Assembly: GCA_964514975.1 (NCBI GenBank)
Contig: CAZESS010000001.1
Location: forward strand, 126,297-172,268
From: an uncultured Thermoplasmatales archaeon
GTDB taxonomy: Archaea > Thermoplasmatota > E2 > UBA202 > DSCA01
DNA: 45,972 bases
Direction: 5' to 3'
Of the stretch, positions 1-45,972 are shown in pieces. Positions within the stretch are counted from its first letter, which is position 1. Each line of letters opens with the position of its first letter. The notes below the pieces were generated by a model. The model did not search any database. It saw only the letters and a program-made list of their open reading frames with translations, and had not been told where the DNA came from. The position numbers were made by a program, and so were the translations under genes.

Positions 1-415
1 GATGTGGTGCTGTCGAAGACGGTGTGGAATGGCTCAGCCTGGGTGGAGTATCACTGGGAGGATGTCGGTGATGTGGTGACGTTTAATTTGACGGTGACGA
101 ATAATGGGACGAATCCCTTGGTGGATGTGACGGTGAATGAGTCGTTGCCGGCGGGGCTGCTGAATGGGAGCTGGGGGGCATCGTATGAGTGGACGATAGC
201 TGGTCCGTTGATGGTGGGTGAGAGCTGGTCTGTTATGTTTGATGCTGTGGTGATTGATGTGGGCGTGATGGTGAATGATGCCCGGGTTGGGGGGTATTGT
301 GAGAATACGTCTGCGTTTGTCGAGGATGCCGATTCGGCGTCTGTTGAGGGTGAACGGGCGGATGTGGTGCTGTCGAAGACGGTGTGGAATGGCTCAGCCT
401 GGGTGGAGTATCACT
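1..415 (+). repeat. Exact 55-bp direct repeat (1-55 and 361-415) marking a 360-bp tandem coding unit
   Basis: gatgtggtgctgtcgaagacggtgtggaatggctcagcctgggtggagtatcact is identical at both positions. Confidence 0.95.
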
Positions 416-3400: not shown

Positions 3401-5250
3401 AGTTTGGTGACGGTTCCACGGGGCGTGGTGAGCGGGTGTCGCATAGGTATGATGATGACGGGTGCTACCGGGTTAATTTGACGGTTGTTGATGATGACGG
3501 GGCGAGGGATACTACGAGCCAGATGATCACGGTGAGCAGTGTTGGGCCATCGGCGAGCTTTACGGATGAGCCTGCGAGCCTGAGCACCACCGATCTGGTC
3601 TATTTCAACAGCACCTCCAGTGACAGTGATGGCTCCATTGTTAACTGTACATGGGACCTGGGTGATGGTACCATCCTATATGGTGAACATGTGACCCATA
3701 GCTATAGTGACGACGGCGACTGCACGGTCACTCTCACGGTGACGGATGATGATGGTGCGATTGATACTGCCAGTCACGTGGTGTCGGTAAGCACTGTTTC
3801 GCCATCGGCGTCGTTCACTGTTTCGCCATCGGACCCGTTGACCGGCAACATTGTCTACTTCAATAGTACATCCAGCGATTTTGATGGAAGTATTGTGAAT
3901 TGGACATGGGATCTGGGTGATGGTACCATCCTGTATGGTGAACATGTTATCCATAGCTATGGCGACAATGCGAGCTACACGGTGACGTTGACGGTCGTGG
4001 ATGATGATGGAGCTACAAACACCATGTCCCAGCAGGTTGCTGTACATGCTGTCACCCCATCTATATCGTTCACTGCCAATGAATCCAGCGATGAACTCGT
4101 CGTTATCTCCGCGCCTCAAGGACTGTCATGGAGCGACGTTTACATTGCATGCTCCAATGGCACCGATACGGATATCATTGACATGGCAGGAACTATTGGG
4201 GAGGGTGATATTATCCCCGTTGGAACTACAGGACTCTTCGACACGATTACTGTTAACCTCACATGGATGCCCACGGCAGCTACTATCGGGCAATATGTGT
4301 TTACACGAGCCACATCCGCAGACACATCCGCCGATAGTCTCTATAACCTCTCTATTTCGATGTCGCCATCTGATTATGGTTCAATATCTCTCAATCCATC
4401 CGGTGGCATATATGGAGAAGGCACAGTGGTGACAGCCACTGCGACCCCGATGTCTGGCTGCCAGTTCGACCGCTGGGGTGGTGACGTCAGCGGCGGCGAC
4501 ACATCGGTCCAGATTACGATGCATGAGGATATGGGCATTGTTGCTTATTTCATCGAGGAAGCCTCCAGACCTGCAAAAAACATGGCTCCCACGATTTCCC
4601 TCGATACTCCTGCCGGCGGCAGCACCGTTTCTGATGTCGTACCCGTGGAGGGCACCGCCGGCGAAGTGGATGGAACCGTGCAATACGTAGAGGTCAGGAT
4701 AGATGAGGGGTCATGGCACACGGCGACAGGCACAGACAGCTGGATATATATGTGGGATACCAACATGGTAGGTGATGGCAGTCATACAGTATATGTACGC
4801 AGCTATGATGGAGAAGACCACTCCGATATTGCCTCTGTGACAGTGACGGTGGATAACGTCCTTCAGGGTCATATTCCCATCGTTGTTATTACAGCCCCGG
4901 CAAACGGTACAGTGATAGCTGAATCACTGGTCATCCAGGGGAATGCAGGTGACATGGATGGCAACGACACCGTTACAAAAGTTGAGATACGCATGGACGA
5001 CGGCGACTGGGTGGTGGCCAATGGCACTGGCAACTGGTCATACAGTCCTGACCCGGAATCCATGAGCGGTCATACCCATATCATACAGGCCCGGGCTTAC
5101 GATGGAACAGAGTATTCATCCATCAAATCCATCACATGTATCATGGGTGATGAGCAGGACAATAGTGCCCCTGGCTTCGAGATGCCTCTGCTGCTCGCCG
5201 TTGCGTTCGCTATCCTGATATTGCTGAAGAAACGGAAAACGGCTATGTAG
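4..5250 (+). CDS. Large cell-surface protein, 5'-truncated by the window edge: tandem DUF11-type Ig-like repeats, three PKD domains, Ig-like (Big) domains and a C-terminal PGF-CTERM anchor
   Basis: Repeated 'K.D.PDPV..G..L.YTITV.N.G' units; PKD 'W.WDLGDG...G..V.HSY...G.Y.VTLTV.DDDGA'; C-terminus PGFEMPLLLAVAFAILILLKKRK (PGF, TM helix, basic tail); many N-x-S/T sequons. Confidence 0.9.
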   Translation: MVLSKTVWNGSAWVEYHWEDVGDVVTFNLTVTNNGTNPLVDVTVNESLPAGLLNGSWGASYEWTIAGPLMVGESWSVMFDAVVIDVGVMVNDARVGGYCENTSAFVEDADSASVEGERADVVLSKTVWNGSAWVEYHYVDDMREAIMFNLTIMNNGTNPLITVNVTDVLPSGLANASWGESTSWLISFLAVGDTTTIIFNATVVGDGILVNTASVMGVCENTSTPVYYEDNATVEAGADLVVEKMDMPDPVVAGASLNYTITVTNYGPTAADNVLVTDLLPANVTITAAAAGYTCLDHPVQWLIPRLNASASVMLWVNVTVDSSALGMLHNRVNVSSSTYDPNVTNNEDEEDTEVNTVVRLSIRKSDSSDPVHDGEPLTYTVIVTNHGPSDAYDVMVTEHYDSRFTYQSASPQPEEGTQNSWSLGMIPAHGHSTIAIQGVVTVDDDADMINVVAAVAANANISRTTEVTEVTSPIIRITKDAPVTVKAWENITYSLTYYNPGDMPLTNVTITETYPSPTTFITSMPMPTVGNNTWIIDYLPPHTARAIEVTLSINTSIENGTLLFNHVNVSADQNVSATANATTTVLNCEIYDPKVSIDLNGPPLVPGDIIEYRIWINNTGILPAENASFTDPIPTHTAYVPGSATASYGTIVYNTSADSLQWHGTIPSKASLNIVFRVRVDDVPSGIEILNQGVLSCHNMQNPTDDPSTIPFDDPTNDTVVVPPLTVEKTDTPDPVYAGDTLTYGVTVANTGEDILRNITVVDTYDSMLTVIATDNGTIHNDTITWHIPLLYPGDVVAYTVTAEVEHVDIVMEILNTVIAVAETGERGEDNETTGIKPVPPEPLLMIQKTDDVDPVEPTHRLRYTITVANTGSGYATDVVIKDTLPGEIQYEGSSHAPTKVEGSVLTWDIGDLAAGETFTLTVWTRADYGLATGTILNNTVNVTCDEGVYDYAWETTNITNKPPVTEKKFHGFVQNESFTTGTGNYVLHHVTNETFITLDAVDFPHTGMSGVNNTWYRIYKWNKNTEKWQMLFNWKLYGSWRTEAPYFPVHLASLGEMYGLSPDGKYQIDFYSNDGAGNYEQPKWNDVYVHSSQLPQASFSYTPTSPATIEDIQFTDTSVDEAGSVVSWWWEFGDGSTGRGERVSHRYDDDGCYRVNLTVVDDDGARDTTSQMITVSSVGPSASFTDEPASLSTTDLVYFNSTSSDSDGSIVNCTWDLGDGTILYGEHVTHSYSDDGDCTVTLTVTDDDGAIDTASHVVSVSTVSPSASFTVSPSDPLTGNIVYFNSTSSDFDGSIVNWTWDLGDGTILYGEHVIHSYGDNASYTVTLTVVDDDGATNTMSQQVAVHAVTPSISFTANESSDELVVISAPQGLSWSDVYIACSNGTDTDIIDMAGTIGEGDIIPVGTTGLFDTITVNLTWMPTAATIGQYVFTRATSADTSADSLYNLSISMSPSDYGSISLNPSGGIYGEGTVVTATATPMSGCQFDRWGGDVSGGDTSVQITMHEDMGIVAYFIEEASRPAKNMAPTISLDTPAGGSTVSDVVPVEGTAGEVDGTVQYVEVRIDEGSWHTATGTDSWIYMWDTNMVGDGSHTVYVRSYDGEDHSDIASVTVTVDNVLQGHIPIVVITAPANGTVIAESLVIQGNAGDMDGNDTVTKVEIRMDDGDWVVANGTGNWSYSPDPESMSGHTHIIQARAYDGTEYSSIKSITCIMGDEQDNSAPGFEMPLLLAVAFAILILLKKRKTAM
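3545..4050 (+). repeat. Two closely related tandem PKD-coding repeats
   Basis: acatgggacctgggtgatggtaccatcctatatggtgaacatgt (about 3650) versus acatgggatctgggtgatggtaccatcctgtatggtgaacatgt (about 3904). Confidence 0.85.
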
Positions 5251-26926: not shown

Positions 26927-29900
26927 ATGAACGGAAAAACAATATTGAAAGAATACAAGAAGTTAGCATGTTTTTTGGTTACAGGTATTTTTTTATTGGG
27001 TGCTGTCCCCGGTACAATTGTGGACGTAAAAGCACAAGAAAACACTCAGATAATAGTCCCAGTTCCCGGCTCAGTGAGCGGTTCGGCTGGCACAGGAAAA
27101 GAGTGGGAAGGAACCATCGAGGTGCCAGCAGGCTTAAAACAACTAAAAATAGAACTAGACTGGGGTGCTAACGATGTTTCTGGTGCTTGGTTCTATCCTG
27201 TTGTTACGGATCCGTCAGGTAATAAACATGGGCTTAATCATAACCCACTCCATTATTCTGGAGCAAGTAAACCACAGTATTATATATTTGATACTCCGCA
27301 AACTGGCGATTGGCAAATAAAAGTTGGTGTTTGGACTGGAGTAACTGGCACTCGAGACTTTAAAATTACAACAAAAACTTCAAAAGATATTAAGTTGGAA
27401 AATAGAAAAATATTCATGACACAAGGCTCGGGGATTGCTGGTCCGAGTTTTGTCGAGACATATTTGCCAGATGGTGAGACTTTTCATTCTGGAGATACTA
27501 AAAGAGTCAAGATTTGTACGGGTTCTACAGATGTTAATTCTATCAAAGGACGTGGAGCAGTAACTGTATCTGTTCCTAAACAGAGCACCAACCTTGTCAA
27601 AGACGAAATGAATACGTATTTCTGGAACGCGTTTTTGTGCCATGGAACTACTTATGAGGGAGTTGAATCTATAATAGCTTTTCAAAAAGCAATCAGTATA
27701 ATTACAGGAGCATTCACTCCCCCTACAAGCACAATATTTCAAACAGTTGCAGAAAAGATTTTAGATATGATTAATTGGTTACAAACACGGGATTACTCCT
27801 ATGGAGGCGGCCCTACAGGCCCCGAATGGACGAATACAAATAATTATGATATATACTCCTTTGAATACAGCACCGGACCTATGTATAGTGGATACGCTTG
27901 CAATAGAATTGAGGTAACACTGCCTATCGAGTTGAAAGGAAATAAAAATATCCCGGTACATATCCATAATTCCTACACATGGTGGGATGGATTGTATACC
28001 ACCAAGAATGTAGGCCACGAAGAAACGATTATATTAGAGCCTAAACCAGACTTCAATGTCGAAACTGTTTCTAAAAATTATTACTATGAGAGAGATGAAG
28101 TTGCTAAAGTGAAAGTAAATGTAACAAATAACAGAGATGAAGATACGGATATTTGGTTAGGCACTACCTTCAAAGGTCCAGAAGGAAATGAATACGATAT
28201 CCCGCTTAAACACTCAAATATCCCCAAAGACAAAACAAAATCATTTGATATAAACTGGAGAATACCTTCAACTGCTGCGGCGGGTCAGTATGAGATAGCT
28301 GTTAATTGCTGGAAGAGCGGAGCACAAACCGAGAAATATACTGATAATCTTGAGTGGCAGTCGATTTTTTATGTTCCTAATCTAGATATAGTAACTCCTA
28401 CTACCTCCAGACCAGCCATTGTTGGTGACCCATCACACCCAGTAGAATTCTTTTTAAAATTAGATACAGGCTTAAAAGATATGACTTCGTGCTATCTAGC
28501 AAATGCGTTCGACATCGAAATTGGTGGAAAAGAGGCAAATTTCCAGTTGTACAACATAGACCGTGAGAACAATTATTATTTTAAGGTAACTCCCCCCACA
28601 CAGGCAAGTGAAGGTAACTATGATTTGGAAGTAAGCATGGACGCCGGCGACATCTCGGACACGGAGATTGAGCCAAACGCGGTCACATATTCGACAGGCG
28701 GAAATGCAGATGTCGTGGAAGTCATCGACCGCTCCGGGAGCATGAGCGGACGAAAGATAGACGATGCCAAGAACGCAGCGAACTTATTCGTCGACAAAAT
28801 GACCAACGGAGACTACATAGGAGTATGCTCCTACAGTAGCGGCTCATCGGTCAACTATCCCCTCACCGAAATCACTTCTAGCGCCATAAAGCAAAACGCA
28901 AAAAACTCTATTAATGGCATCGCGGCCGGAGGAATGACTTCCATCGGTGCCGGACTGCAATCTGCGTACAGTCAGCTCGTCAGCAGCGGCGACCCCGGAC
29001 ATCCATGGACGATTATCCTGATGACGGACGGCCATCATAACACCGCTCCCGATCCAGACAGTATCCTGCCCGACCTAAAGACGAACAATATCAAGGTATA
29101 TACCGTTGGCCTGGGAAGCAATGCAGATGCGAACTTGTTAACTCATATAGCGGAGGAAACAGGCGGCCAGTATTACTTCTCACCCAGCGAGAAAGAATTG
29201 GTAGCGATCTATAACACCATCTCGGGACAAGTGAAAGCTGAAAGCATACTAAAAACGATGGATGGAGCCGTCCAGAAGGGAAAGAAAGAGGTAGAAACGG
29301 TGCATGTTGACCCCTCGTTGGATGTCGTTACCTTCACCGTTACGTGGCCATCCGGCACAATAGACACTGTGCTCACACAACCTGACGGCAGCGTCGTAGA
29401 TCCTGCCGATGCCGGGGTATCCCACACAAAAGGCTCAAATCACGAAATATACACGATCGACGACCCGAATGCAGGAAGCTGGCAACTCGAACTCACCACC
29501 CCGCTCTCCGACCCGCCATACACCGTCACCGTCACGGGGACCACAAACGTCACCTTCGACATGTTCACCGATAAAAATAGCTACGCCACCGGTGAGCCAA
29601 TCCAGGTCATTACAACCCTTTCAGATAACGGTGCTGCAGTAACCGGAGCGACAGTAACGGCAAACATTACCCGACCTGACACCTCGACCACCAGCATGCG
29701 TCTCTATGACGATGGAATGCATGGCGACATGGCGGCCGATGACGGCGTATACGCAAACTACTATACAGATACGGGAGCCACCGGAAGCTATGTAATCAAC
29801 GGCCAGGCCACGGGCGCCGTGGGCCCCGACACCTTCATAAGAGAGGCTACGAAGTCAGTGACTGTCTCCGGAACCTCATCGGGCGGACTCTCAATAGCCC

Positions 29901-32134
29901 CTGCATCATGGGAGACAGACACGATACATAACGGAGAATACGCACTGAAGTCGTTTACCGTGCATTCATCATCGCCAAACGACGAAACAGTCTCCCTGTC
30001 GGCAACTGACTTCGTAAACGAGTCAAAACAGATAGGCCCGGATAACGCCTTCTTCGTACCCCAGACCTTCACAGTTCCGGCCGGCGGCGACAAAACCATC
30101 TTTGCGGTTGTTTCCATCCCTGACAATGCGCGCACTGGCAATTACACGGGGCACATTCTCCTCCAGAGCAGCGCGAATTCCCTTAGCATTCCCACAACTC
30201 TATGTGTGGAACAACTCAAAACTGATTTACACATTGAAATGCAGGATTCCCCATCTCGTGTCAAGCCAGGCGACAACCTAACATACACCATCGACATAAC
30301 AAATACCGGCAATATACCTGCACAAACCGTCAGCATCAGGGAAACCTATGATACCAACTTTGTTCCGCTGACCTTCAGTCCTGCCCCCGATGCGGGTAAC
30401 ACGACATGGATGTTCGACTCGATTGCACCGGGTGAAACAAAGACAATACAGATAACGGGCATGGTCGCTGACAACAGCCAGAGCTTCCTGCGCAACGTTG
30501 TCACCTATTCATCAGCCGATACAGACTTAGGGCGCGTGGTAGAGCATACAGAGGTGATATATGCACAGCCGGGTCTCCGGATAGAGGATCCTGCCATGGC
30601 CGAGGCCGGGGATGCCATTCGGTGTAGACTCACATATTACAATGGCGGAGGACTCAACATGACAAACACGAGTCTCAGATTTCACACGCCACATGCCTCA
30701 GTCCAGGAGCAGTATTCCTATGGAACACAGTACAATTCCAGTGACTCAACCGCCGATAGCATATGGAACATTGGAACGTTAAAAGCGCATTCGTCGGAAG
30801 TGATCGAATGCTGGCTGCAGATAGATACACCGCTGGACAACAACACCATCCTGCCGTTCCGGGCTGAGCTGGTTTCCGACCAGGCTTCAAAACAGGCAAT
30901 CACCAATATGACAGTGCATTCATCGCCATATCTTACCACCGACATAGAGGATACCCCAGACCCCATCAATGAGGGACAAAACGTAACCTACACTATGACG
31001 GTTCACAACACCGGGAACATGAATGCCACAAATCTGACAGTGACCCATGCTTTCGATGAAATCATGCTACATATCGTCGATAGCGACGGAGGAGACAACA
31101 ACGGCGATGCGCTCATATGGGATGTTGACAAGTTAGCCGTGGGAGAAACTAGAGAATATATTGTGACAGCCACGGCCGACGATGTACAGAGCGAAACACC
31201 TGCCACCAATACGATTGAGGTTGACTGTGAGCAAAACGTCTCCGCATGTTGCTCGGAATCCACGACGATATGCCCGGTATTATCACCACCCGATCTCCAT
31301 GTCAGCCCGGTTGCTCCTACAATAACAGAGGCCAACAATATCCAGTACCTCGTCGAGGTTGCCAATACAGGCCAGCAGGAGGCTACCGGTCTGACGATAA
31401 CGCTTACCTACGACGAAACCCAGATAACAATCATGGGATGTGATGGCGGGACAAACACGGGAGGTAGGGTTACATGGAACCTGACAGAACTTGCCGGAGG
31501 GACAACTACCGCCTTTACCGTCGATGCAGCGGTAAACGATGCTTCCTCCGATATCGCCATATCAGCCGAAGCGACCTGTAACAATGGGGTAGGAGACGTA
31601 AATGAAACCACCACGGCTGTTGTCTGCCAGCCCCCAGCGACCACAGTTGACTTCCATGGATATGCCAGTGAGGAGATATTCCTCGGCGGTATTTACACGC
31701 TTTACAACATCAGGCCAAATACCTCTCTTACTCTGAGCAGCACGGATGCCCCGCCGGCCGATGCAGCCGGCGTAGATGCCACCATGTACCGGGTATGGCG
31801 ATGGGACAGCTCCAACTCGAGATGGGTCAGGCTGGTTGACTGGAAGGAATACGAAAACAAGGCCATCACGTTAGCTACGCTTGGCGAAACCAACGGATAC
31901 CCGCAATCTGGTAAATATTGCATTGACTTTTACAGCGTCGACAAAGCCGGAAACCAGGAGCCGATACAATGGATGGACATATATGTCTCCGAGCCCGCTA
32001 CAGGAGAGGAAGACACAGCCCCGGCCGAGGGAATCTCATCCATGGAGAGGAGCATACCCGGCTTTCAACTGTTCATTCTGTTGGGAGCCGCAGCGACTAT
32101 CTTTCTGCTGATCAGGAAAAAGAAACAGGGATAG
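26927..32134 (+). CDS. Large secreted cell-surface protein: signal peptide, variable N-region, vWA domain, choice-of-anchor-X-like domain, DUF11 repeats and PGF-CTERM
   Basis: GGAGG RBS; MIDAS VIDRSGSM, TSIGAG, MTDG; LYDDG.HGD..ADDGVY; DUF11 units; IPGFQLFILLGAAATIFLLIRKKK. Confidence 0.92.
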   Translation: MNGKTILKEYKKLACFLVTGIFLLGAVPGTIVDVKAQENTQIIVPVPGSVSGSAGTGKEWEGTIEVPAGLKQLKIELDWGANDVSGAWFYPVVTDPSGNKHGLNHNPLHYSGASKPQYYIFDTPQTGDWQIKVGVWTGVTGTRDFKITTKTSKDIKLENRKIFMTQGSGIAGPSFVETYLPDGETFHSGDTKRVKICTGSTDVNSIKGRGAVTVSVPKQSTNLVKDEMNTYFWNAFLCHGTTYEGVESIIAFQKAISIITGAFTPPTSTIFQTVAEKILDMINWLQTRDYSYGGGPTGPEWTNTNNYDIYSFEYSTGPMYSGYACNRIEVTLPIELKGNKNIPVHIHNSYTWWDGLYTTKNVGHEETIILEPKPDFNVETVSKNYYYERDEVAKVKVNVTNNRDEDTDIWLGTTFKGPEGNEYDIPLKHSNIPKDKTKSFDINWRIPSTAAAGQYEIAVNCWKSGAQTEKYTDNLEWQSIFYVPNLDIVTPTTSRPAIVGDPSHPVEFFLKLDTGLKDMTSCYLANAFDIEIGGKEANFQLYNIDRENNYYFKVTPPTQASEGNYDLEVSMDAGDISDTEIEPNAVTYSTGGNADVVEVIDRSGSMSGRKIDDAKNAANLFVDKMTNGDYIGVCSYSSGSSVNYPLTEITSSAIKQNAKNSINGIAAGGMTSIGAGLQSAYSQLVSSGDPGHPWTIILMTDGHHNTAPDPDSILPDLKTNNIKVYTVGLGSNADANLLTHIAEETGGQYYFSPSEKELVAIYNTISGQVKAESILKTMDGAVQKGKKEVETVHVDPSLDVVTFTVTWPSGTIDTVLTQPDGSVVDPADAGVSHTKGSNHEIYTIDDPNAGSWQLELTTPLSDPPYTVTVTGTTNVTFDMFTDKNSYATGEPIQVITTLSDNGAAVTGATVTANITRPDTSTTSMRLYDDGMHGDMAADDGVYANYYTDTGATGSYVINGQATGAVGPDTFIREATKSVTVSGTSSGGLSIAPASWETDTIHNGEYALKSFTVHSSSPNDETVSLSATDFVNESKQIGPDNAFFVPQTFTVPAGGDKTIFAVVSIPDNARTGNYTGHILLQSSANSLSIPTTLCVEQLKTDLHIEMQDSPSRVKPGDNLTYTIDITNTGNIPAQTVSIRETYDTNFVPLTFSPAPDAGNTTWMFDSIAPGETKTIQITGMVADNSQSFLRNVVTYSSADTDLGRVVEHTEVIYAQPGLRIEDPAMAEAGDAIRCRLTYYNGGGLNMTNTSLRFHTPHASVQEQYSYGTQYNSSDSTADSIWNIGTLKAHSSEVIECWLQIDTPLDNNTILPFRAELVSDQASKQAITNMTVHSSPYLTTDIEDTPDPINEGQNVTYTMTVHNTGNMNATNLTVTHAFDEIMLHIVDSDGGDNNGDALIWDVDKLAVGETREYIVTATADDVQSETPATNTIEVDCEQNVSACCSESTTICPVLSPPDLHVSPVAPTITEANNIQYLVEVANTGQQEATGLTITLTYDETQITIMGCDGGTNTGGRVTWNLTELAGGTTTAFTVDAAVNDASSDIAISAEATCNNGVGDVNETTTAVVCQPPATTVDFHGYASEEIFLGGIYTLYNIRPNTSLTLSSTDAPPADAAGVDATMYRVWRWDSSNSRWVRLVDWKEYENKAITLATLGETNGYPQSGKYCIDFYSVDKAGNQEPIQWMDIYVSEPATGEEDTAPAEGISSMERSIPGFQLFILLGAAATIFLLIRKKKQG

Positions 32135-37367: not shown

Positions 37368-38345
37368 CTATACCGTAACGCCGATTTTTTCCGTCATCTT
37401 GTTGGTGATGTACACCGGGGCCTCACGCAGCAGCGCACGATAAGAGCTATCCGGGATGGCATCAGAACCGGCGACATCCTGCGCCGCCCCCACATACCGC
37501 TGGATGCCCTGCTCGTAGACCTCCTCCAGGCTGGTGCCCTTTTTCTCGAGTTCCTCCTCGATGGACAGCTTGCCCTTCTCCAGCAGGTCGATGGTCCGCT
37601 GGTCGACATCGGTGCCAAACGCCTTCAAAAGCGGCATGATGATACCCTCCTCCATCTTGCCCTGCGCGATGTCCACCATGTCATCCGCTATCTGATATGC
37701 GAGGCCGACGTTCCGGCCGTACTCGGCCATCACCGAGCGCACATGCTCAGACGCCCGTGCCTCGATAGCACCGGCGCGGCAGGCGGCCGCAAACAGCGAA
37801 GCCGTTTTCATCTCGATGACCCGGATGTACTCCTGCATCAGCAGCTCCGTGGAGTTCTCCTGCTCAAATATTCGCTCCAGATGCGCGTTCAGGTCGATGT
37901 CGCGCAGCTGCCCGACCAGGGTGTCATCCCAGGTGTCAAGAAAAATACGGGCATTCTCCAGCCCATGGTCAACCGAAATCCGGAACGCCTGGCTGATCAT
38001 CCGATGCCCCGTCAAAATAGCGTTACCCACGCCCTTTTCCACATGCAGCGCCGGCTTCCCGCGCCGCACCGCGTCGTCATCCATGATATCGTCATGGAGC
38101 AATGAAGCCGAATGCGCAAGCTCGATACCCACGGCGCTCTCCAGCGCCTTCTGGTATAGCTGGTCACGCTCGCCGTTCGAGCAGGCCCTGAACGACAGGA
38201 TGAGCATCACGGGCCGGAGCAGCTTGCCGCCCTCGACCGCGTAGCGCATGTCCTCGTCGGATACCTCCCCCTCCATCTTTTGGCGTACCTCGTCCTGCAT
38301 CTCCGCGACGAATTCCTGAAATGTGAGCACATGACTGAGGGACAT
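37368..38345 (-). CDS. trans-Polyprenyl diphosphate synthase
   Basis: GGKLLRP, FARM LLHDDIMD...RRGKP, GQ..D, KTASLF, SARM YQIADDMVD. Confidence 0.93.
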   Translation of the reverse strand: MSLSHVLTFQEFVAEMQDEVRQKMEGEVSDEDMRYAVEGGKLLRPVMLILSFRACSNGERDQLYQKALESAVGIELAHSASLLHDDIMDDDAVRRGKPALHVEKGVGNAILTGHRMISQAFRISVDHGLENARIFLDTWDDTLVGQLRDIDLNAHLERIFEQENSTELLMQEYIRVIEMKTASLFAAACRAGAIEARASEHVRSVMAEYGRNVGLAYQIADDMVDIAQGKMEEGIIMPLLKAFGTDVDQRTIDLLEKGKLSIEEELEKKGTSLEEVYEQGIQRYVGAAQDVAGSDAIPDSSYRALLREAPVYITNKMTEKIGVTV

Positions 38346-38689: not shown

Positions 38690-40366
38690 ATGGGCTCCGT
38701 TGAAACAGCCGCACACAGGGAGGGATACCGGGTGCTCGAACCGACCCGCAGCGTCGACGAGGAGACAATGGAAAAAACCGGAGTCCCGGCGACCATCCCC
38801 GCGGCCTACGTAGAAAAAAATGGCGAGGTGTTTTTGCTCAAGGAAAACGGTACCAGGGAGCGCATCGGCACCATGGCATACTGGCAAAAAATCAAGCAGT
38901 ATCCGCCGCCCCCGGACCGGACAGCCGACATCTCCACCGACATCGAGCACGAGCACGACCTCCAAAGCTGCGGGCTCTGCAGCCAGCACAAAAACAGCAC
39001 CGCGCTGCTGAACGTCGCCGTCACCAACCGATGCGACCTGCGATGCTGGTACTGCTTTTTCTACGAGGAAAAAGCCGGCTTCGTCTACGAGCCCACGCTG
39101 GAGGACATCATGGAGGGCATCCGCACCGCCCGGCGGTTCAACGGCTACGTGCCCCCGATACAGATAACCGGCGGCGAACCAGCGATGCGGGACGACCTCG
39201 CCGACATCATCAGCGGGGCGGTCGAGCTCGGCTCGCCCCATGTCCAGCTCAACTCCAACTCCATCTCGGTCGGCATCGACTATTTCGAGGACCCCGACAG
39301 CGCCATCGAACGGGTGCGGCGGTGGCGGGAGGCCGGCCTGAAAACCATCTACACCTCGTTCGACGGCGTCAGCCCGGACTCGGCCAGCGACCCCAAAAAC
39401 CATTACGAGATACCGTTTGCACTGCAGGCCTACATCGACGGTGGCATCAAGTCAACGGTGCTCGTCCCCACGGTCAGCCAGCTCAACCTGCACGAGGCAG
39501 GGGACATCGTCCGGTTCGCCATGCACAACATGGACAAGGGCATAATGGCCGTCAACTTCCAGCCCATCTCCATGGTCGGCTACATCAAAAAAGGCGACCG
39601 GGAAAAACTCCGCGTCGTCCAGAGCGACATCGTCGAGCAGCTGGAGCAGCGATTTGGCTTCGGCATCGAGGCATGGTATCCCGTGTCGACGGTGTCATCG
39701 CTGGCGGACATCGTCGGCAAACGCGCCCACTACGACGTCCACTTCTACAACAACGAAAAATGCGGCATCGCCACCTATGTCTACGTCGACCGGGAAAACA
39801 TGACATTGCACCCGATCACCGAGTTCCTGGACGTCGACCGCTTCATCCAGGACGTCAACGACATGACGACGAGCCGCTGGAAAAAAGTCGTCACCGGCGC
39901 CAGTTTGCTGCGTGACACGGTCCGCTACCGCGGGCTCAACAGGGCGCTGGCGAAAAAGCTCACCGACTACATCATCCGGGACGAGCTGCCCAACGGCGAG
40001 TCCCTGTCCGAGATGCTGGAGAACATCCTCGGCGACGGCAGCTACGACAGCCTCCGCACCTTCCACTACAACTTTTTGTTCCTCGGCATGATGCACTTCC
40101 AGGACTACTACAACTACGACGTCAACCGCGTCCAGCGCTGCAGCATCCACTACGCCACCGGCGACCGCATCATCCCCTTCTGCACCTACAACGTCTACCC
40201 CTCCCTCTACCGCGACCGCTATCTCGAACAGCACAAGGAAACCGGCGACCGCGCCCAACAGCTCATGGAGCAAAGCAGGCAGGCAAAAAAGCGCGTCCAG
40301 AAATTCCGCAAACACAAGGACGAAATCGTGGAACACCCGGTGTATAAGCAGGTGTACGACTTCTAG
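38690..40366 (+). CDS. Radical SAM protein of the tetraether lipid synthase (Tes/GDGT-MAS, MJ0619-like) family, divergent
   Basis: CGLC.QH...T.L...VTNRCDLRCWYCF, YEPTLE.I, QITGGEP, VNFQP.S.VG, MHFQD.YN.D..RV.RC.IHYAT...IIPFCTYN; aaaatttaaata promoter at about 38655. Confidence 0.85.
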   Translation: MGSVETAAHREGYRVLEPTRSVDEETMEKTGVPATIPAAYVEKNGEVFLLKENGTRERIGTMAYWQKIKQYPPPPDRTADISTDIEHEHDLQSCGLCSQHKNSTALLNVAVTNRCDLRCWYCFFYEEKAGFVYEPTLEDIMEGIRTARRFNGYVPPIQITGGEPAMRDDLADIISGAVELGSPHVQLNSNSISVGIDYFEDPDSAIERVRRWREAGLKTIYTSFDGVSPDSASDPKNHYEIPFALQAYIDGGIKSTVLVPTVSQLNLHEAGDIVRFAMHNMDKGIMAVNFQPISMVGYIKKGDREKLRVVQSDIVEQLEQRFGFGIEAWYPVSTVSSLADIVGKRAHYDVHFYNNEKCGIATYVYVDRENMTLHPITEFLDVDRFIQDVNDMTTSRWKKVVTGASLLRDTVRYRGLNRALAKKLTDYIIRDELPNGESLSEMLENILGDGSYDSLRTFHYNFLFLGMMHFQDYYNYDVNRVQRCSIHYATGDRIIPFCTYNVYPSLYRDRYLEQHKETGDRAQQLMEQSRQAKKRVQKFRKHKDEIVEHPVYKQVYDF

Positions 40367-40496
40367 AAGGAAGAGAACAGCTGAGCGAAATAAAGAGTTA
40401 CTTATTTGCAAGTAGATTTTTTAGGCGAACTCTGGTAATCTGATAAAAATCAAAATAAACTTATATGTCAAAATATTACTTATTTGTAGGGATGAG

Positions 40497-42002
40497 ATGC
40501 GACTACTAATAGATACGAACATATTCATTTATCGGGAAGATTATGGAGTTGTTCCTGAAAACCTTCAGAGGCTTATAAAAATATTAAACGATTTAGGAGC
40601 CCACATTTTGGTACATCCTATGTCTGTGGAAGAGATAAAGAGAGATGAGGATGCGGAAAGAAGAGAGGTTTCTCTCTCGAAAATTAAAACCTATACGTTC
40701 GTAGAGAATCCTCCGGAAGCGACGGACGATAAGAAATTTATTGCGTTAGTGGGCCAAACTGATGACCCTCACGAAATAGTTGATAATAATCTTCTATTTT
40801 GTATTCAGAAAGAAGCAGCACAATATCTCATAACAGAAGATAAAGGTATTCATAGAAAAGCAGAGAAGATACAGTTATCAGACCGGGTGCTATCGGTTAG
40901 TGAGGCAATTGATAGTTTCGAAGGTTTTCTTCCTAAAGAAGCAGTTAGAACGCCGCCCTCATTGAATCATGTGCCTCTATATACTCTAGATATCGAAGAC
41001 CCTATTTTTAATTCATTAAAACAGGAATATCCTGACTTTGAGAAATGGTGGAGAAAAAAATGCCGGGAGGGGAGAAAAGCATGGGTATATTTTCAGGAGA
41101 ATAGGACTATTGGTGCAATTCTAATCCTAAAACTAGAAGAGGAATCTATCCCTTCGACTCCGTCATTACCAGAAAAGAAACGGGTTAAAATATGTACTCT
41201 AAAAGTTAAAGAAACTGGACATAAAATTGGCGAATTGTTTATTAAAATATCTGTTAGATTGGCTATTAAAAACCAACGAGATGAATTGTATTTAACCCAT
41301 TTTACTAAACTAGAAGGGGATCGTCTTGTTGATTTAATCAAGGAATTTGGATTCAATCAAGCCGCTAAGACATCAGATGGAGAAGCTGTATATGTAAAGA
41401 ATATTTATCCTATACGAAATGGGTATGTGCCTATTGAAATTGACAAACAATTTTATCCTGGCTTCTATGACGGAGAAAAGGTAAAAAAATTTTTAGTTCC
41501 TATCCAGCCCCAATATCATGACAGGTTATTCATTGATTGGCCTGGTAGACAACATAGTCTTTTCGAATTTAGCAAGACAGGAGCGGAACTTATTACTGAA
41601 GGGAATACCATAAAGAAGGCATATATTTGTCATTCAAAAACAAGAAAGGTGTCCACGGGTGATATTTTATTGTTTTATCGTTCAAGGGATAAAAAAAGCG
41701 TTACCACTCTTGGGATAGCGGAAGAGGTTTACGATGACATAACTTCAGCCGAAAGGATAATCCATCTTATCGGAAAAAGAAGTGTATATAGTATACCGGA
41801 GATAGAAGAGCTGACTATTAAGCCGACCAAAGTGATTTTGTTTAGGCAACATTTTAACTTCCCCATTCCTGTTTCACGAGATTTTTTAAACGAAGAGGAT
41901 ATTATGTGCTGGGCACCACAGTCAATTACCGAGATAGAGAACGAAGAATATCAACTAATAAAAAACAAAGGAGGAATAGATGAAAGCTTTACTGTCGATT
42001 AA
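40497..42002 (+). CDS. PIN nuclease - GNAT acetyltransferase - PUA-like (EVE/ASCH-type) fusion protein
   Basis: PIN LIDTNIFI...E...D..L...LITED; GNAT KICTLKV....KIGELFI...LYLT...LI.EFGF; C-terminal VPI.P.YH..LF, GNTIKKAY, GDILLFYRS; AT-rich. Confidence 0.82.
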   Translation: MRLLIDTNIFIYREDYGVVPENLQRLIKILNDLGAHILVHPMSVEEIKRDEDAERREVSLSKIKTYTFVENPPEATDDKKFIALVGQTDDPHEIVDNNLLFCIQKEAAQYLITEDKGIHRKAEKIQLSDRVLSVSEAIDSFEGFLPKEAVRTPPSLNHVPLYTLDIEDPIFNSLKQEYPDFEKWWRKKCREGRKAWVYFQENRTIGAILILKLEEESIPSTPSLPEKKRVKICTLKVKETGHKIGELFIKISVRLAIKNQRDELYLTHFTKLEGDRLVDLIKEFGFNQAAKTSDGEAVYVKNIYPIRNGYVPIEIDKQFYPGFYDGEKVKKFLVPIQPQYHDRLFIDWPGRQHSLFEFSKTGAELITEGNTIKKAYICHSKTRKVSTGDILLFYRSRDKKSVTTLGIAEEVYDDITSAERIIHLIGKRSVYSIPEIEELTIKPTKVILFRQHFNFPIPVSRDFLNEEDIMCWAPQSITEIENEEYQLIKNKGGIDESFTVD

Positions 42003-42420
42003 GCCGAAATACATTAAAGAAATTGCCAATGGTAACAAAAAATACGAATTTAGAAAATATACATTTAAAAAAAGGGTCCAAGAAATATGGATTTATGCAA
42101 CTTCTCCGGCCCAGGAAATTGTTGGTTTATTCTCGGTCGGAGGGATAATTAAGGATACACCGCAAAATTTATGGGATTCCCTCAAAAAAGATGCGGGAAT
42201 CTGTGAGAAAGAATTTTTTGATTATTTTAATGGAACCAACGTAGGGTATGCGATCAAGATTGGAGATATTGAATTCTTTGATACACCTTTAGACCCGTGG
42301 GAAATTTTTCCGAATTTTTCGGCCCCCCAGTCATATTGTTATCTCCGAGAGCCTATGCAATATACGCAATCGTTTGAACAGTCACTATTGGATAGTTATC
42401 CTTCAGCGGTGCCCGGTTGA
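41980..42420 (+). CDS. ASCH-domain protein
   Basis: LLSIKPKY...I..G.KKYEFRK, IYATSP...IVG.F, APQSYCYL; GGAGG RBS; 23-nt overlap with the upstream gene. Confidence 0.88.
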   Translation: MKALLSIKPKYIKEIANGNKKYEFRKYTFKKRVQEIWIYATSPAQEIVGLFSVGGIIKDTPQNLWDSLKKDAGICEKEFFDYFNGTNVGYAIKIGDIEFFDTPLDPWEIFPNFSAPQSYCYLREPMQYTQSFEQSLLDSYPSAVPG

Positions 42421-42704
42421 TAATACATTTGTTTCTCCTTATAGCAACTGATAAATAGTTTAGACGAGCGGGCTCGGTGGGATTTGAACCCACGGTCTGC
42501 AGCTCCGAAGGCGTGCGCCTCATTGCTGTCCGCTGAGGGGCTATTTGGCAACGGTGTATAGACGCAGTGGCCGCTGAAAAATTCGCGCAGCCGTATGGTT
42601 AAAAACTGCGAAACGTTCAGGCCGTATGCCTTCGCCATATTGAGCAAATGCTGAGGCACGCGCACGGTTGTTTTGCGCTTTCGCGTTTGCTTGCTGTATG
42701 GCAT
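42396..42704 (-). CDS. CcdA/RHH-like small protein reading through the att half-tRNA; probable N-terminal fragment of a split (SSV1/pTN3-type) integrase
   Basis: RKTTVRVPQHLLNMAKAYGLNVSQFL..RL RHH pattern; AFGAADRGFKSHRAR is encoded by the tRNA half. Confidence 0.6.
   Translation of the reverse strand: MPYSKQTRKRKTTVRVPQHLLNMAKAYGLNVSQFLTIRLREFFSGHCVYTPLPNSPSADSNEAHAFGAADRGFKSHRARSSKLFISCYKEKQMYYQPGTAEG
42469..42512 (-). mobile_element. att site: isolated 3' half of tRNA-Arg(TCG)
   Basis: Reverse complement GC-CTTCGGA-GCTGC-AGACC-GTGGG-TTCAAAT-CCCAC-CGAGCCC-G gives the anticodon loop, T-arm and 3' acceptor strand; no D-arm or 5' acceptor strand upstream. Confidence 0.85.
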
Positions 42705-42763
42705 AGTGCCATAATGTGCAACCACTCAAAAAGCTTGTGAAATAAGGCAGGGGTGAAGACCTA

Positions 42764-43435
42764 TTATCCCCTCGGTACAGGTTTGAATATTTTAATAATA
42801 AACGCAATTAAGAAGGAAACGCTCAAGATAGCAGCAAGACTAATCACTAATATAGCAGTTATAAGAATTGCAGGGTATATCTCTAAAACAGGTGAGAGTG
42901 GAAGACAAATCAATGATAATATTAGTACAAATGCGATAAAATGTATAGCAGGGTAAAATTCTTTTAACGAAAATCCTTCTCTGTTTTGAGGTTTAGTATC
43001 AGTTAGTAAGGGTTTATTCCTTTGGAATATTGGCGATTGTATTGCCAAAAAACCCCCGATTATTCCAAGTAAAGCAGCAAAACCTTGTAGCATGCTGCTA
43101 AAAAACCAATACGAAGTATTTTTTGTTACTCCGAACCGAGCGTATTCCCCTGATGCATCCATAAAAACAAACGTAAATGAGGCAATAACTGCAACCAAAG
43201 CAAAGGCAAAGATTGATATTTTTATGCTTTGGTCTAATGTCAGTAGATAGGATATCATGATGAACAGACCGATGAATGCAAGGATGCCAAATAGATATTC
43301 GTAAAAGCCAATGGTAATACCTACTGTTAAATGAGTGATTACCAATGTAATGCTTATGGCCACATACAGTGGAATAACGACTTTTGAGCGAGAAATTTTC
43401 TCGCTCAAATCTTCCCACACTCCATTATTTGTCAC
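42764..43435 (-). CDS. Hypothetical multi-pass membrane protein (AT-rich cargo)
   Basis: 223-aa ORF with about 6 hydrophobic segments. Confidence 0.65.
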   Translation of the reverse strand: MTNNGVWEDLSEKISRSKVVIPLYVAISITLVITHLTVGITIGFYEYLFGILAFIGLFIMISYLLTLDQSIKISIFAFALVAVIASFTFVFMDASGEYARFGVTKNTSYWFFSSMLQGFAALLGIIGGFLAIQSPIFQRNKPLLTDTKPQNREGFSLKEFYPAIHFIAFVLILSLICLPLSPVLEIYPAILITAILVISLAAILSVSFLIAFIIKIFKPVPRG

Positions 43436-43538
43436 GATACTGAATGAGATTATTTATTAAAAATCAATTGGTTTTCTATAAATCCATCATTTTTATCGCA
43501 AATTTAATAGCAAGCGGATAATATTCCTGTTTTCTATA

Positions 43539-44219
43539 ATGGATTTAGCAATTCCTAAACAGGGCAACAAATTCGTAAGCATTCAACGCGTGTGGTTTAT
43601 CGCCATGGTCGGACTTTCTATTGCTTGGCTTATGAGCGACATCGTGCTGCGCCTGCCAATGGATTACGAAGGGCGTGCGGTGCTATTTGCCGCCATCATT
43701 GTGCCAATCTGCTTTGTCCTGTTACATTTATTCGTTGTTCGGCGCGGGCTTGCATCGTGGCATGATTTTGGATTAACCACCCGCAATGCGGGCAGAAACG
43801 CCGCATATGGCGTGGCGTTGGGCGCTGTTGCGCTCGTTGTTGCGGTTGCTACGTTGCGATGGGTGTATGGCGTTACCGACATGAACCCACCTGCTGATTG
43901 GCAGCTTTATGCCGTTGCGTCGGGCGTTGCCGCGCCGATATGGGAGGAACTGCTATTCCGTGGCATGCTTTTTGGCTCGCTGCTTATGCTCGTTGAACGC
44001 AGGGTGCGCACCGACTTGCAACCTGCTGTTTTGCTTGGCGTGGCGTTTTTGATAAACATATTTTTCCTGACGGCGCATTGGGGCGCAAACCTGCTCGTTA
44101 TTTACCTGACGGGCTTTGCGTACGTGTTTGCGTTTTACGCAACGCGCAGTTTGGTAACGCCGATTATCGCGCATGCAGTGTACAACCTAACACTTATTGC
44201 TGCCGCATCTTGGTTTTAA
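43539..44219 (+). CDS. CPBP-family (CAAX/Abi) intramembrane glutamic endopeptidase
   Basis: APIWEELLFRG (EExxxR), FLTAH (FxxxH), IIAHAVYN (HxxxN). Confidence 0.9.
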   Translation: MDLAIPKQGNKFVSIQRVWFIAMVGLSIAWLMSDIVLRLPMDYEGRAVLFAAIIVPICFVLLHLFVVRRGLASWHDFGLTTRNAGRNAAYGVALGAVALVVAVATLRWVYGVTDMNPPADWQLYAVASGVAAPIWEELLFRGMLFGSLLMLVERRVRTDLQPAVLLGVAFLINIFFLTAHWGANLLVIYLTGFAYVFAFYATRSLVTPIIAHAVYNLTLIAAASWF

Positions 44220-44252
44220 TCCTATAGCGATATGTTTATAAGTTAAATTAAA

Positions 44253-44275
44253 TTTATAATTGGCTACGTAGCCAA
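44253..44275 (+). promoter_or_regulatory. TATA box followed directly by a perfect 16-bp palindrome (operator-like)
   Basis: tttataa at 44253-44259; TTGGCTACGTAGCCAA at 44260-44275. Confidence 0.6.
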
Positions 44276-44356
44276 CATGTACTATACTGTTGCTGCACCA
44301 CCGCAGTTGGATGATAGGCCAGGAGTGGAATTGGTACTATCAAGGAGACGAATAGT

Positions 44357-44455
44357 ATGCTAAAAATAGCAATCTCCGCTGACAGCGATGATATTGTAAA
44401 AATAGCCAAAGCAGCCTTTTGGTTTGCCATAGCTATTGGCGCAATATCACTCTAA
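44357..44455 (+). CDS. Putative 32-aa hydrophobic peptide (MLKIAISADSDDIVKIAKAAFWFAIAIGAISL)
   Basis: AGGAG RBS-like sequence upstream; hydrophobic C-terminus. Confidence 0.45.
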   Translation: MLKIAISADSDDIVKIAKAAFWFAIAIGAISL

Positions 44456-45167
44456 TTCAGAGGAGATATTCGGATGGGTGGCGGAGGCGTGAATTGTTGT
44501 ACATGTAACGGTGGGCGTGCTTTTTCATGCCCACCTATTATCCCTTCATTATTCCTTTTTACAATCGCGCATCAAATAGCATTATTGCTGAGATAAGCGC
44601 GAGAAAGGGCTAACCACGTGGCGAGCGTGGAATGCGGGCAAAGGCAAGGGCTCGTCGCCCTGCCCGCCGCATGTAAAGCGTGTTCTGCGGCAAGTCATAT
44701 AGGCGTGCATTGCGCCACGCAGGTGATGTAGAATAATCAGTAAAAGTATAGAAAATGCCTATACAATTGCAAGAAAATAACTATCAGTAATCGCGGGTAA
44801 ACCTATCTATTTACCAGCCATTCTGCATCAGTCGCCACGCAAAGCAAAACGCTTTTATAGCTTGCTTGCGAGCTCTCATTTGTCTTGGTACTGCATGCCG
44901 TGCTTGCTGAGCGCTCGGAAATAACCAATGGGGAAAAACTTTTATACGGAATCGCGCCGCTGTGAGGATTGCCAAAGCGTGCGCAAAAACATTATGCGTC
45001 TTCTTGTTATGCCATAATACGGTTTGTTTTGGCTGTGTTGTCGCTTGCTTGCTTACCTGCGTCTTAGCATCGTGCACTTTGCAGTTGGCAATAGCGCTCT
45101 GTGCATGGTGCAGTAAAAAAATAAACAATAAAAGTAACACAAAACAACAAACAAAAAACCCTGCATT

Positions 45168-45462
45168 TTTACTTGCTTACTTGCAAGTTAGCAAGTACGC
45201 AAGTTAGCGCATTAGCATACTTGCACATTGCATATTGCACGTGCACTTAGCAAGCTTGCACCTTGCACACTTGCACATTAGCAACATTGCATATTGCAAA
45301 TGAGCAAGGGCGCTTGGTGGTGGGGTATGTATGCAAGTAACCAATGGTTATTCTTTTGCTAATTAGCAAATAAGCACATGTGCACAGTGCACCGTGCAGG
45401 GTGCAGGGGGCGCATGTGCACGGTGCAGCCCTGCACCCCTGCTGAATTGTGCAGGGTGCTTA
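45168..45462. repeat. Dense array of 7-8-bp (T/A)GCA-core degenerate repeats and palindromes (origin- or centromere-like)
   Basis: acttgctt acttgcaa gttagcaa gtacgcaa gttagcgc attagcat acttgcac attgcat attgcac ... gtgcacagtgcac gtgcagggtgcaggg ... ccctgcacccctgc. Confidence 0.75.
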
Positions 45463-45514
45463 AGTGGCATACAAAAAAGCAAACCCTTATATGGCACTAC
45501 CGTATTATGCAGCT

Positions 45515-45676
45515 ATGAAGATGTTCCGCATGGACGAGATGGCGCACCGCCTAATCGAAGATGCCAAAGAGCGCATGCAGGACATAGGTTGGGAGCACCC
45601 AACCAACAGCGACGCCATACGCTACATGCACGAAAAAGCGTTTAACGATAAGCATACGCAGCATAAGCCAAAATAA
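45515..45676 (+). CDS. Small RHH/antitoxin-like DNA-binding protein (53 aa)
   Basis: MKMFRMDEMAHRLIEDAKERM......PTNSDAIRYM pattern; cttatat box about 25 nt upstream. Confidence 0.6.
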   Translation: MKMFRMDEMAHRLIEDAKERMQDIGWEHPTNSDAIRYMHEKAFNDKHTQHKPK

Positions 45677-45702
45677 ACTGCGTGGTGTTGGCCAATTTTT
45701 TA

Positions 45703-45808
45703 CGCTAAGGCCGATTGCAGCGCCGCTAAGCGCTCCCATGGCGCGGGGTGCTACATAGCCCTTGCCGAAGACCACTCGCTCTTAGCGCGGCGTTATTCGT
45801 CCTTAGCG
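45703..45808. repeat. Imperfect 31-bp inverted repeat built from CGCTAAG units
   Basis: Arms 45703-45733 and 45778-45808, each with two CGCTAAG units 21 bp apart; 44-nt spacer. Confidence 0.75.
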
Positions 45809-45972
45809 CCGAAAGCTGTATCGCGACAAATTCAACGGCATTCTCAATGGAGCAGACAGCACCCAAAATGCGCGTTTTTATCACACAATCAGCAAGATTC
45901 ACAGTTCGCTAAGTAAACAGTAGTTCCGAATCCCAAAAAATGCCAAGGAAGCATGATTTTATAGAGAAGGAT

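Follow-up and report, generated by a model that had tools for sequence, protein, structure and literature searches.

A horizontally acquired PIN-GNAT-EVE and ASCH gene cassette beside a tRNA-Arg site in an uncultured Thermoplasmatales archaeon

Introduction

Between a conserved, GC-rich stretch of archaeal chromosome and a fragment of a tRNA gene lie two overlapping genes of much lower GC content. What do they encode, how did they come to be there, and what might they do for the cell that carries them? The two genes, here called A and B, are found in a 45,972-nucleotide stretch of the genome of an uncultured Thermoplasmatales archaeon (GenBank assembly GCA_964514975.1, contig CAZESS010000001.1, positions 126,297 to 172,268 of the forward strand); this whole stretch is referred to as the window, and positions are those of the window unless another record is named. 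The original prediction, made from the sequence alone, saw here a PIN ribonuclease-type domain, an acetyltransferase and two PUA-superfamily domains, combined in a defence or toxin-antitoxin module that senses modified viral nucleic acid, or writes and erases an acetyl mark, to gate a PIN toxin.

What the original prediction described is confirmed, and its interpretation finds partial support. The pair belongs to a family that has already been catalogued, and it was brought in as a compact cassette that is common to two related species through recent transfer. That it is a mobile conflict module of toxin-antidote type, belonging to the (PIN)-GNAT-EVE plus ASCH family, is very probable. The explanation preferred as a whole, which the balance of evidence favours by a modest degree, is that of a self-contained, horizontally acquired (PIN)-GNAT-EVE plus ASCH cassette, most likely serving as a defence or addiction module of the toxin-antidote type. 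The features of the locus are as follows:

40497..42002, + strand: gene A, 501 amino acids (AA), intact open reading frame (ORF); PIN-GNAT-EVE protein, PADLOC PDC-M11A
41980..42420, + strand: gene B, 146 AA, intact ORF; ASCH protein, PADLOC PDC-M11B
41980..42002, + strand: overlap of A and B, 23 nt
40367..40496, + strand: upstream intergenic region, part of the acquired cassette
40497..40931, + strand: PIN domain of A, residues ~1-145, with acidic D6, E14, E46, D96 and D115
40944..41414, + strand: GNAT acetyltransferase domain of A, residues ~150-306, which includes the conserved G241-x-K-I-G245-E246
41478..41984, + strand: C-terminal PUA-like (EVE-type) domain of A, residues ~328-496
42466..42512, - strand: 47-nt partial copy of tRNA-Arg(TCG), starting near tRNA position 32 and running two bases beyond the 3' end; repeat of attachment (att) type

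Identity of the gene pair

Using PADLOC, a check that the original prediction had proposed, A was matched to the PDC-M11A model PDLC04422 with E=1.8e-156, residues 1-500 aligning with model positions 1-500 of 501, and B to the PDC-M11B model PDLC04425 with E=9.9e-47; both components that make up PDC-M11 are present. A PIN domain at the N-terminus, a GNAT domain in the centre and an EVE domain at the C-terminus, with an ASCH gene in the same operon, likewise place the pair among the (PIN)-GNAT-EVE plus ASCH operons, of which it is an ordinary member. The matches to PDC-M11 are full-length for both genes, with the same gene order and adjacency and no structural difference; PDC-M11 was found embedded in BREX, DISARM or type I restriction-modification (RM) operons, whereas this copy stands alone beside a tRNA site. 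The PDC set of Payne et al., 2024 (10.1101/2024.01.29.577857) comprises 145 systems, taken from genes that lie within BREX, DISARM and type I RM systems and described in the available part of that paper as untested.

The architecture itself was treated by Bell, Wolf and Koonin, 2020 (PMC7641849), who credit it to Iyer et al., 2013. According to the accessible sections of their paper, (PIN)-GNAT-EVE operons almost always encode an ASCH protein, a toxin-antitoxin function is suggested, and none of the modules has been characterised. Their operons share with ours the three-domain protein followed by the ASCH gene, the patchy spread over archaea and bacteria and, among relatives, frequent type I RM; an AAA_17 ATPase, a helix-turn-helix (HTH) domain on the ASCH protein and an RM system are known there, and none of these is present at this locus. 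In the literature searched, the terms GNAT-EVE and PIN-GNAT-EVE were found only in that paper and its preprint. The expectation that similar architectures are known from comparative genomics, with no experimental characterisation, is thus in agreement with PADLOC and with Bell et al.

A homologous pair also carries functional labels in GenBank. In the lambdoid Escherichia phage PhiR47_2 (PV340567.1), a PIN-less pair directly downstream of cI is annotated as a toxin, GevT, and an antitoxin, GevA. Identity is 44% between B and GevA (E=3e-35) and 28% between residues 164-500 of A and GevT (E=8e-35); the two pairs have the same 23-nt overlap, though GevT lacks the PIN domain that A has and is prophage-borne. 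Phage lambda carries the rexAB exclusion genes directly after cI, and because GevT and GevA hold that place (L106 3198-5384, directly after cI and before kil/gam), their position suggests, by analogy, expression in the lysogen.

As originally described, A and B are an overlapping, AT-rich two-gene operon with exactly the ORFs foreseen. By kilobase, the GC content is 0.612 at 39001-40000, 0.442 at 40001-41000, 0.355 at 41001-42000 and 0.408 at 42001-43000, so that the A-B block has 36-44% GC against 57.7% for the whole 1.96-Mb genome. A conserved radical-SAM gene flanks the pair on one side and the 47-nt tRNA-Arg(TCG) copy on the other. The overlap is read in two frames: the codons for the C-terminal G-G-I-D-E of A also provide the start codon of B, ATG, and its Shine-Dalgarno-like GGAGG. 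About 33 nt ahead of the ATG of A, a TATA-like TTATAT (40461-40466) is a putative promoter of that gene, and on either side of it are two exact copies of an 11-nt direct repeat (40398-40408 and 40476-40486, 78 nt apart), which could be operator sites for autoregulation or could have arisen by chance in AT-rich DNA.

Insertion and recent transfer of the cassette

Of 41 related genomes, all have the flanking 558-AA radical-SAM gene, and gene A was found in two, namely this one and the same-genus genome G001. G001 carries B and A between the tRNA-Arg and radical-SAM genes, B being next to the tRNA. In two further genomes of the genus the site is empty: in G003 the tRNA-Arg gene ends 64 bp from the radical-SAM stop codon, with no cassette, and in G002 the gap between the tRNA-Arg and radical-SAM genes is about 255 bp. 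By comparison with these sites, the cassette is a 2.1-kb insertion between the tRNA-Arg gene and the core gene.

Comparison with the sister species (the G001-type record L019) shows how recently it was shared. DNA identity is 88.3% over the radical-SAM gene, and then 99.2% over the intergenic region, 98.9% over A, 98.2% over B and 97.8% up to the att copy; the step is located at the radical-SAM stop codon. Synonymous differences are found at 99 of 558 codons in the radical-SAM gene, at 6 of 501 in A and at 3 of 146 in B (where five further codon changes are nonsynonymous, counts too small to interpret). Because the cassette is 98-99% identical where the neighbouring core gene is only 88.3% identical, and because the synonymous differences show the same step, the segment from 40367 to about 42465 is common to the two species through transfer long after their divergence; the synonymous counts make this case without appeal to selection at the protein level. 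Vertical inheritance in a housekeeping context, which the original prediction had named as evidence that would tell against a conflict role, was not what was found, since the distribution is patchy (A in two of the 41 related genomes and in 16 of the 401 sampled from the phylum) and the transfer recent.

Family size, pairing and PIN-less forms

At E<=1e-3, at least 1591 homologues of A were counted among 7999 candidates scored; they are typically 45-57% identical and come from Methanosarcinales, Methanomicrobiales, Asgard archaea, Altiarchaeales, Dehalococcoidia and Syntrophales. In a collection with one genome per species, 335 stretches encode a relative of A, the best 80 of which were used for the locus counts given here. 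In a 401-genome sample of the phylum, A-like genes (E<=1e-10) occur in 16 genomes, representing 14 of 162 genera, and B-like genes in 29. All 16 of the A-bearing genomes have B on the same contig, at most 350 nt away; B occurs without A in 13, and in three of these a contig end is about 550 nt away or less, so that A could be cut off.

The arrangement of the two genes is strongly conserved. In 74 of the 80 loci B lies 3' of A on the same strand, in two the genes are convergent, and in the remaining four the contig ends within 83 nt of A, so that B adjoins A in all 76 loci that have room for it. Of these 76, 70 have an overlap of exactly 23 nt, two of 38 nt and one of 17 nt, the others being the two convergent pairs and one in which the A frame ends early; the annotations of phage PhiR47_2 and provirus psiM100 show a 23-nt overlap as well. 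Among 75 same-strand cases, 70 have ATG as the start codon of B, and 61 have a Shine-Dalgarno-like motif ahead of it. To judge from these sequences, the arrangement is set up for translational coupling.

The PIN domain is less constant than the remainder. Seven of 17 matches to A in the phylum sample begin at query residues 95-164, lacking the PIN domain and keeping GNAT-EVE and the ASCH partner, and 13 of the 15 phage matches listed begin at residues 143-164, being likewise PIN-less. On plasmids (33 records, 11 of them conjugative), 17 of the 33 cover at least 80% of A, and about half are PIN-less. Because several relatives without PIN keep these parts, the predicted core of the system is GNAT-EVE plus ASCH, with PIN as an add-on. 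The proposal that PIN is the gated core toxin is weakened by the many relatives that do without it and by the labelling of a PIN-less protein as the toxin in PV340567.1.

The Methanothermobacter provirus psiM100 (NC_002628.3; L107 5001-6846) encodes a full-length PIN-GNAT-EVE protein, ORFD, which is 41% identical to A. It lies mostly inside "inserted fragment IFa" and overlaps ORF5 by 23 nt; ORF5, which is the ASCH partner by position only, is annotated as also present in phage psiM2.

Domain architecture and conserved residues of A

The matches of A itself to Pfam are below threshold (EVE E=0.023, PIN_12 E=0.057), yet the predicted PIN, GNAT and EVE/PUA-like architecture is carried by Pfam matches at the level of the family and by two structure models. 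Among 36 aligned homologues, PIN_3 and EVE were each found in 18, and Acetyltransf_1 and PIN_12 each in nine. The AlphaFold2 (AF2) model of the whole of A has a pLDDT of 83.8 and a pTM of 0.63. In it, residues 150-306 resemble GNAT acetyltransferases with Z of 12-13.7 by VIA-align, including NAA60, NatD and Ard1; Foldseek agrees, and TacT3 is among its matches (E=5.7e-5). For residues 328-496, the best structural match is the ASCH protein ZmASCH (5guq_A; Z 14.4, root-mean-square deviation 3.0, 141 residues aligned by VIA-align), which Foldseek finds as well, together with the EVE protein 2gbs (E=2.9e-5).

Since the VIA-align list for the whole model was filled by the GNAT domain, residues 1-150 were folded separately (38 sequences, pLDDT 87.6). 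All Foldseek matches of this model whose titles name a fold are PIN proteins, among them AF0591, VapC toxins, FitB, Utp24/Utp23, SMG6 and Nmd4, with modest scores (the best, 1o4w, at E=5e-4 is the sole match at E<=0.001, and TM is 0.5-0.6). Together with the Pfam match of B, these results bear out all four of the domain calls made from the sequence.

Conservation of individual residues was counted over 81 sequences, being the 80 loci and the window. The numbers in which each residue is kept are:

PIN: D6 79; E14 79; E/D46 79; D96 80; D115 80
GNAT: K231 81; G241 80; G245 81; E246 81
EVE-like: N370 80; K374 80; Y394 80

The ASCH partner

B matches the Pfam ASCH family with E=1.5e-5, above the curated cut-off, and contains the motif G18-x-K20-x-x-E23-x-R25, whose K20, E23 and R25 do not vary in any of 34 sequences. 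Among solved structures, B is closest to ZmASCH of Zymomonas mobilis (PDB 5GUQ/5GUS; 5gus_A, E=6.8e-16 across residues 2-125), which has the same G-K-E-R motif. The fold of B matches that of the C-terminal domain of A, and both have an A/P-P-Q-S stretch near the end; by profile-profile comparison of the two sequences the relationship is not significant (probability 0.26, E=0.24).

A 2026 preprint (10.64898/2026.02.27.708502) reports that 19 of 19 ASCH proteins tested, ZmASCH included, took N4-acetylcytidine (ac4C) off E. coli tRNA in vitro, and that the Lys and Glu of the motif were essential for this deacetylation in three ASCH proteins other than ZmASCH; its accessible text makes no mention of GNAT partners or defence. 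B has the Lys and Glu that G-K-E-R type tRNA ac4C deacetylases require. Because it keeps these residues, and because its closest solved relative is reported to deacetylate tRNA in vitro, the eraser half of the write-and-erase idea is indirectly strengthened, by analogy with the biochemistry of these ASCH relatives.

A proposed mechanism and its weak points

If the pair is read as a toxin-antidote module, A would be the effector, with its PUA-like EVE domain docking it on nucleic acid, with tRNA or some other RNA as the likeliest target. The GNAT domain, present in all relatives, would acetylate the docked target, which the optional PIN domain might cleave. B, as a Lys/Glu-type ASCH protein, would reverse or shield the modification and so keep A harmless in the uninfected cell, until infection or loss of the cassette tipped the balance toward A. 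That B would be the antidote and GNAT-EVE the toxic part is proposed because A is never found without B while B sometimes occurs without A, because ASCH is fused to HTH domains in some relatives, and because of the GenBank labels. The logic would be that of DarT/DarG, in which an enzyme partner reverses the modification made by the toxin. A functional analogy also exists with the GNAT toxins of TacT/TacA-type systems, since the GNAT fold would be the likely toxic activity of A. It has no membership among them at the sequence level, however, and N-terminal acetyltransferases match A as well as or better than TacT does; the partner here is an ASCH protein and not a ribbon-helix-helix antitoxin of TacA type, as with TacT, or a macrodomain antitoxin, as in DarTG. 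The acetyl writer and eraser mechanism, stated in this form, is offered as plausible, though less likely than not, and is more doubtful than the toxin-antidote character of the pair.

Several points count against the reading as a whole or against parts of it. Known writers of ac4C in tRNA are larger helicase-GNAT enzymes, and the writing of ac4C by a plain GNAT protein is unproven. ZmASCH left free ac4C intact, and its overexpression in E. coli brought no significant drop in ac4C, so that its removal of ac4C from tRNA is reported in vitro only (10.64898/2026.02.27.708502). It has also been reported to be a Mg-dependent ribonuclease acting on single-stranded RNA (Kim et al., 2017, PMC5615036), and B keeps the equivalents of two of its three functional residues, Tyr47 and Ser128, with Gln in place of Lys53. 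Among codons that differ between A and its counterpart in L019, 10 are nonsynonymous against 6 synonymous, small numbers that give no sign of strong recent constraint. No publication was found behind the names GevT and GevA, which are GenBank annotation, and the literature searched yielded no experimental report on any member of the family. Type I RM genes are absent within six ORFs in 64 of the 80 related loci, and when PADLOC was applied to seven proteins of the neighbourhood and of contig C8 (which carries the intact tRNA-Arg gene, see below), six of the seven had no match and no known defence gene was found next to the pair.

Genomic context and alternative explanations

The neighbourhoods of the 80 loci were surveyed by crude ORF calling, with up to six ORFs on each side and 604 in total. 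Contexts are very diverse, 454 of the 604 being singletons after clustering. The neighbour clusters, with the number of loci in which each occurs, include:

HsdM 11; HsdS 10; HsdR, two clusters, 6 and 3
Schlafen (SLFN) AlbA_2 / RecG_C-like protein 5; YhcG PD-(D/E)XK (PDC-S02) 5
Nucleotidyltransferase 4; Fic (PDC-S04 / SoFic) 4; Imm5-like protein 3
N6_N4 DNA methylase 3; MmeI-like enzyme 2

Type I RM subunit genes lie at most six ORFs away in 16 of the 80 loci (on both sides in seven), and in 12 of the 56 loci that have at least 8 kb of flank; as there is no background control, the tally is descriptive. It agrees with Bell et al., 2020, and with the route by which PADLOC selected the family. 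At the window locus the pair is flanked by the radical-SAM gene on one side and by the tRNA fragment, with an integrated element beyond it, on the other; neither type I RM nor any other defence system is close by. A weak, generic match of the radical-SAM gene to the PADLOC viperin model was rejected, the gene being present in all 41 relatives.

Four other explanations have been weighed. The pair might be a plain addiction module, that is, a toxin-antitoxin pair acting by post-segregational killing, which stabilises the island or prophage carrying it and has no antiviral role. This would suit the finding of A only together with B, and of B also alone, as well as the toxin and antitoxin labels of the homologous GenBank pair and the spread of the family on plasmids, more than thirty records of which were noted above, a third of them conjugative. 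HTH-bearing ASCH partner genes are annotated on alpha-proteobacterial plasmids and resemble autoregulating antitoxins; HTH-ASCH fusions are also described by Bell et al., 2020 (PMC7641849). It does not readily account for the position of the family within or next to type I RM operons in a fifth of the loci surveyed, for the lambdoid copy that occupies the rexAB place after cI, or for the embedding in defence systems by which PADLOC picked the family; moreover, the copy in the window is chromosomal, with no element left for it to stabilise. Addiction with no antiviral function is considered unlikely, with enough in its favour to be taken seriously.

Alternatively, the target could be DNA, with the GNAT domain acetylating a base and the EVE and ASCH domains reading or removing modified bases, either together with RM systems or in the manner of one, an idea that Bell et al., 2020, attribute to Iyer et al., 2013. 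The association with type I RM speaks for it, as do the fusion of ASCH to HsdS (Bell et al., 2020, PMC7641849), the label "type I restriction enzyme S subunit" on several homologues of B, and the reading of 5-methylcytosine and 5-hydroxymethylcytosine in DNA by the EVE domains of restriction enzymes, as described in a review. However, the named fold matches of the PIN domain are RNases (VapC, Utp24, SMG6, Nmd4), the only biochemistry on a close relative of B concerns RNA, and most loci, this one included, lack an RM partner, so that a DNA target is distinctly improbable.

In a scenario put forward as speculation by Bell et al., 2020 (PMC7641849), the host PIN-GNAT-EVE protein is a counter-measure, recognising and degrading aminoacyl-tRNAs that a phage GNAT-EVE protein has acetylated. 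PIN-less forms do dominate the phage matches listed and full-length forms the cellular loci, the latter also making up 17 of the 33 plasmid records. Left unexplained are the fully conserved GNAT stretch of the host protein and the fact that the ASCH partner and the 23-nt overlap do not differ between the two forms, and a full-length form is also present in the archaeal provirus psiM100; we give this scenario very little weight. Finally, a housekeeping role in RNA modification, as a tRNA acetyltransferase with its deacetylase, can draw on the in vitro activity of ASCH proteins on tRNA ac4C (10.64898/2026.02.27.708502) and on the frequency of PUA-like domains among RNA-modifying enzymes (Bell et al., 2020, PMC7641849), but is contradicted by the distribution (the searches found no A in 39 of the 41 close relatives and none in 385 of the 401 sampled genomes from the phylum), the foreign base composition and the recent transfer, and is almost certainly wrong.

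The tRNA-Arg site and the neighbouring element

The original prediction placed the pair beside a tRNA att site. What stands is the att-type 47-nt copy and the island-like position; no complete tRNA gene was found beside the pair by ARAGORN or by Rfam at E<=1, and the pair lies outside the segment that the att repeats bound. Positions 42466-42512 (- strand) are 100% identical to 68875-68921 of contig C8 of the same genome (G000), which lie inside an intact tRNA-Arg(TCG) gene. On C8 this gene is directly followed by a tyrosine-integrase ORF (Phage_integrase E=1.9e-9; also Archaeal phage integrase). The copy is the far att repeat of a separate element to its right, and by the usual geometry of integration the A-B pair is just outside that element, on the former 3' flank of the tRNA gene. 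The window ends where its contig, C1, ends, and C8 ends 2.3 kb past the tRNA gene; because both contigs stop shortly beyond their tRNA copies, with AT-rich tails, the separate element probably spans the assembly gap between them.

The element at this tRNA-Arg(TCG) gene comprises window positions 42513-45972 and C8 68922-71221 (L002 1548-3047) and is AT-rich. In the window it contains a small CcdA/ribbon-helix-helix-like ORF (42396-42725, - strand, E=0.001), a 223-AA membrane protein and an Rce1/CPBP-like protease (43539-44219). In the same-genus genome G002, a 105-nt remnant (L010 1338-1441), 82% identical to window 42638-42742, lies between the tRNA-Arg and radical-SAM genes; related elements have therefore struck this tRNA site more than once.

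Other features of the window

The radical-SAM gene at 38690-40366 lies near a polyprenyl synthetase gene (37368-38345) on the opposite strand, and its product may be an enzyme of lipid biosynthesis, such as a tetraether synthase. Two giant ORFs, at 1-5250 (1748 AA) and 26927-32134 (1735 AA), lie in stretches of lower GC content and carry DUF11, PKD, CARDB, VWA and Ig-like repeats; they probably encode surface or adhesin proteins.

Implications

What is new in this analysis are the empty sites and the insertion, the recent transfer, the counts of A-B pairing and overlap, the residue conservation, and the link of B to the deacetylase activity of ZmASCH. This copy alone adds little. Its value is that of a clean natural example, a minimal two-gene cassette with empty sites in the same genus and a recent transfer, all of which argue for the autonomy of the pair. 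The family as a whole, which is large and spread across archaea, bacteria, plasmids and proviruses, with the key residues of all four domains kept, remains a good target for biochemistry. In its most general form the proposal would be that reversible acetylation of nucleic acid acts in archaeal and bacterial immunity as a counterpart of the DarT/DarG system, with GNAT-EVE marking tRNA or other RNA by N-acetylation (as in ac4C), the mark being toxic or flagging the RNA for PIN, and ASCH acting as the dedicated eraser or antidote; so broad a claim we regard as unlikely on present evidence. Should the writer and eraser mechanism prove true, toxin-antitoxin and immune modules would gain a new chemical principle, and the newly reported deacetylase activity of ASCH proteins a biological context.

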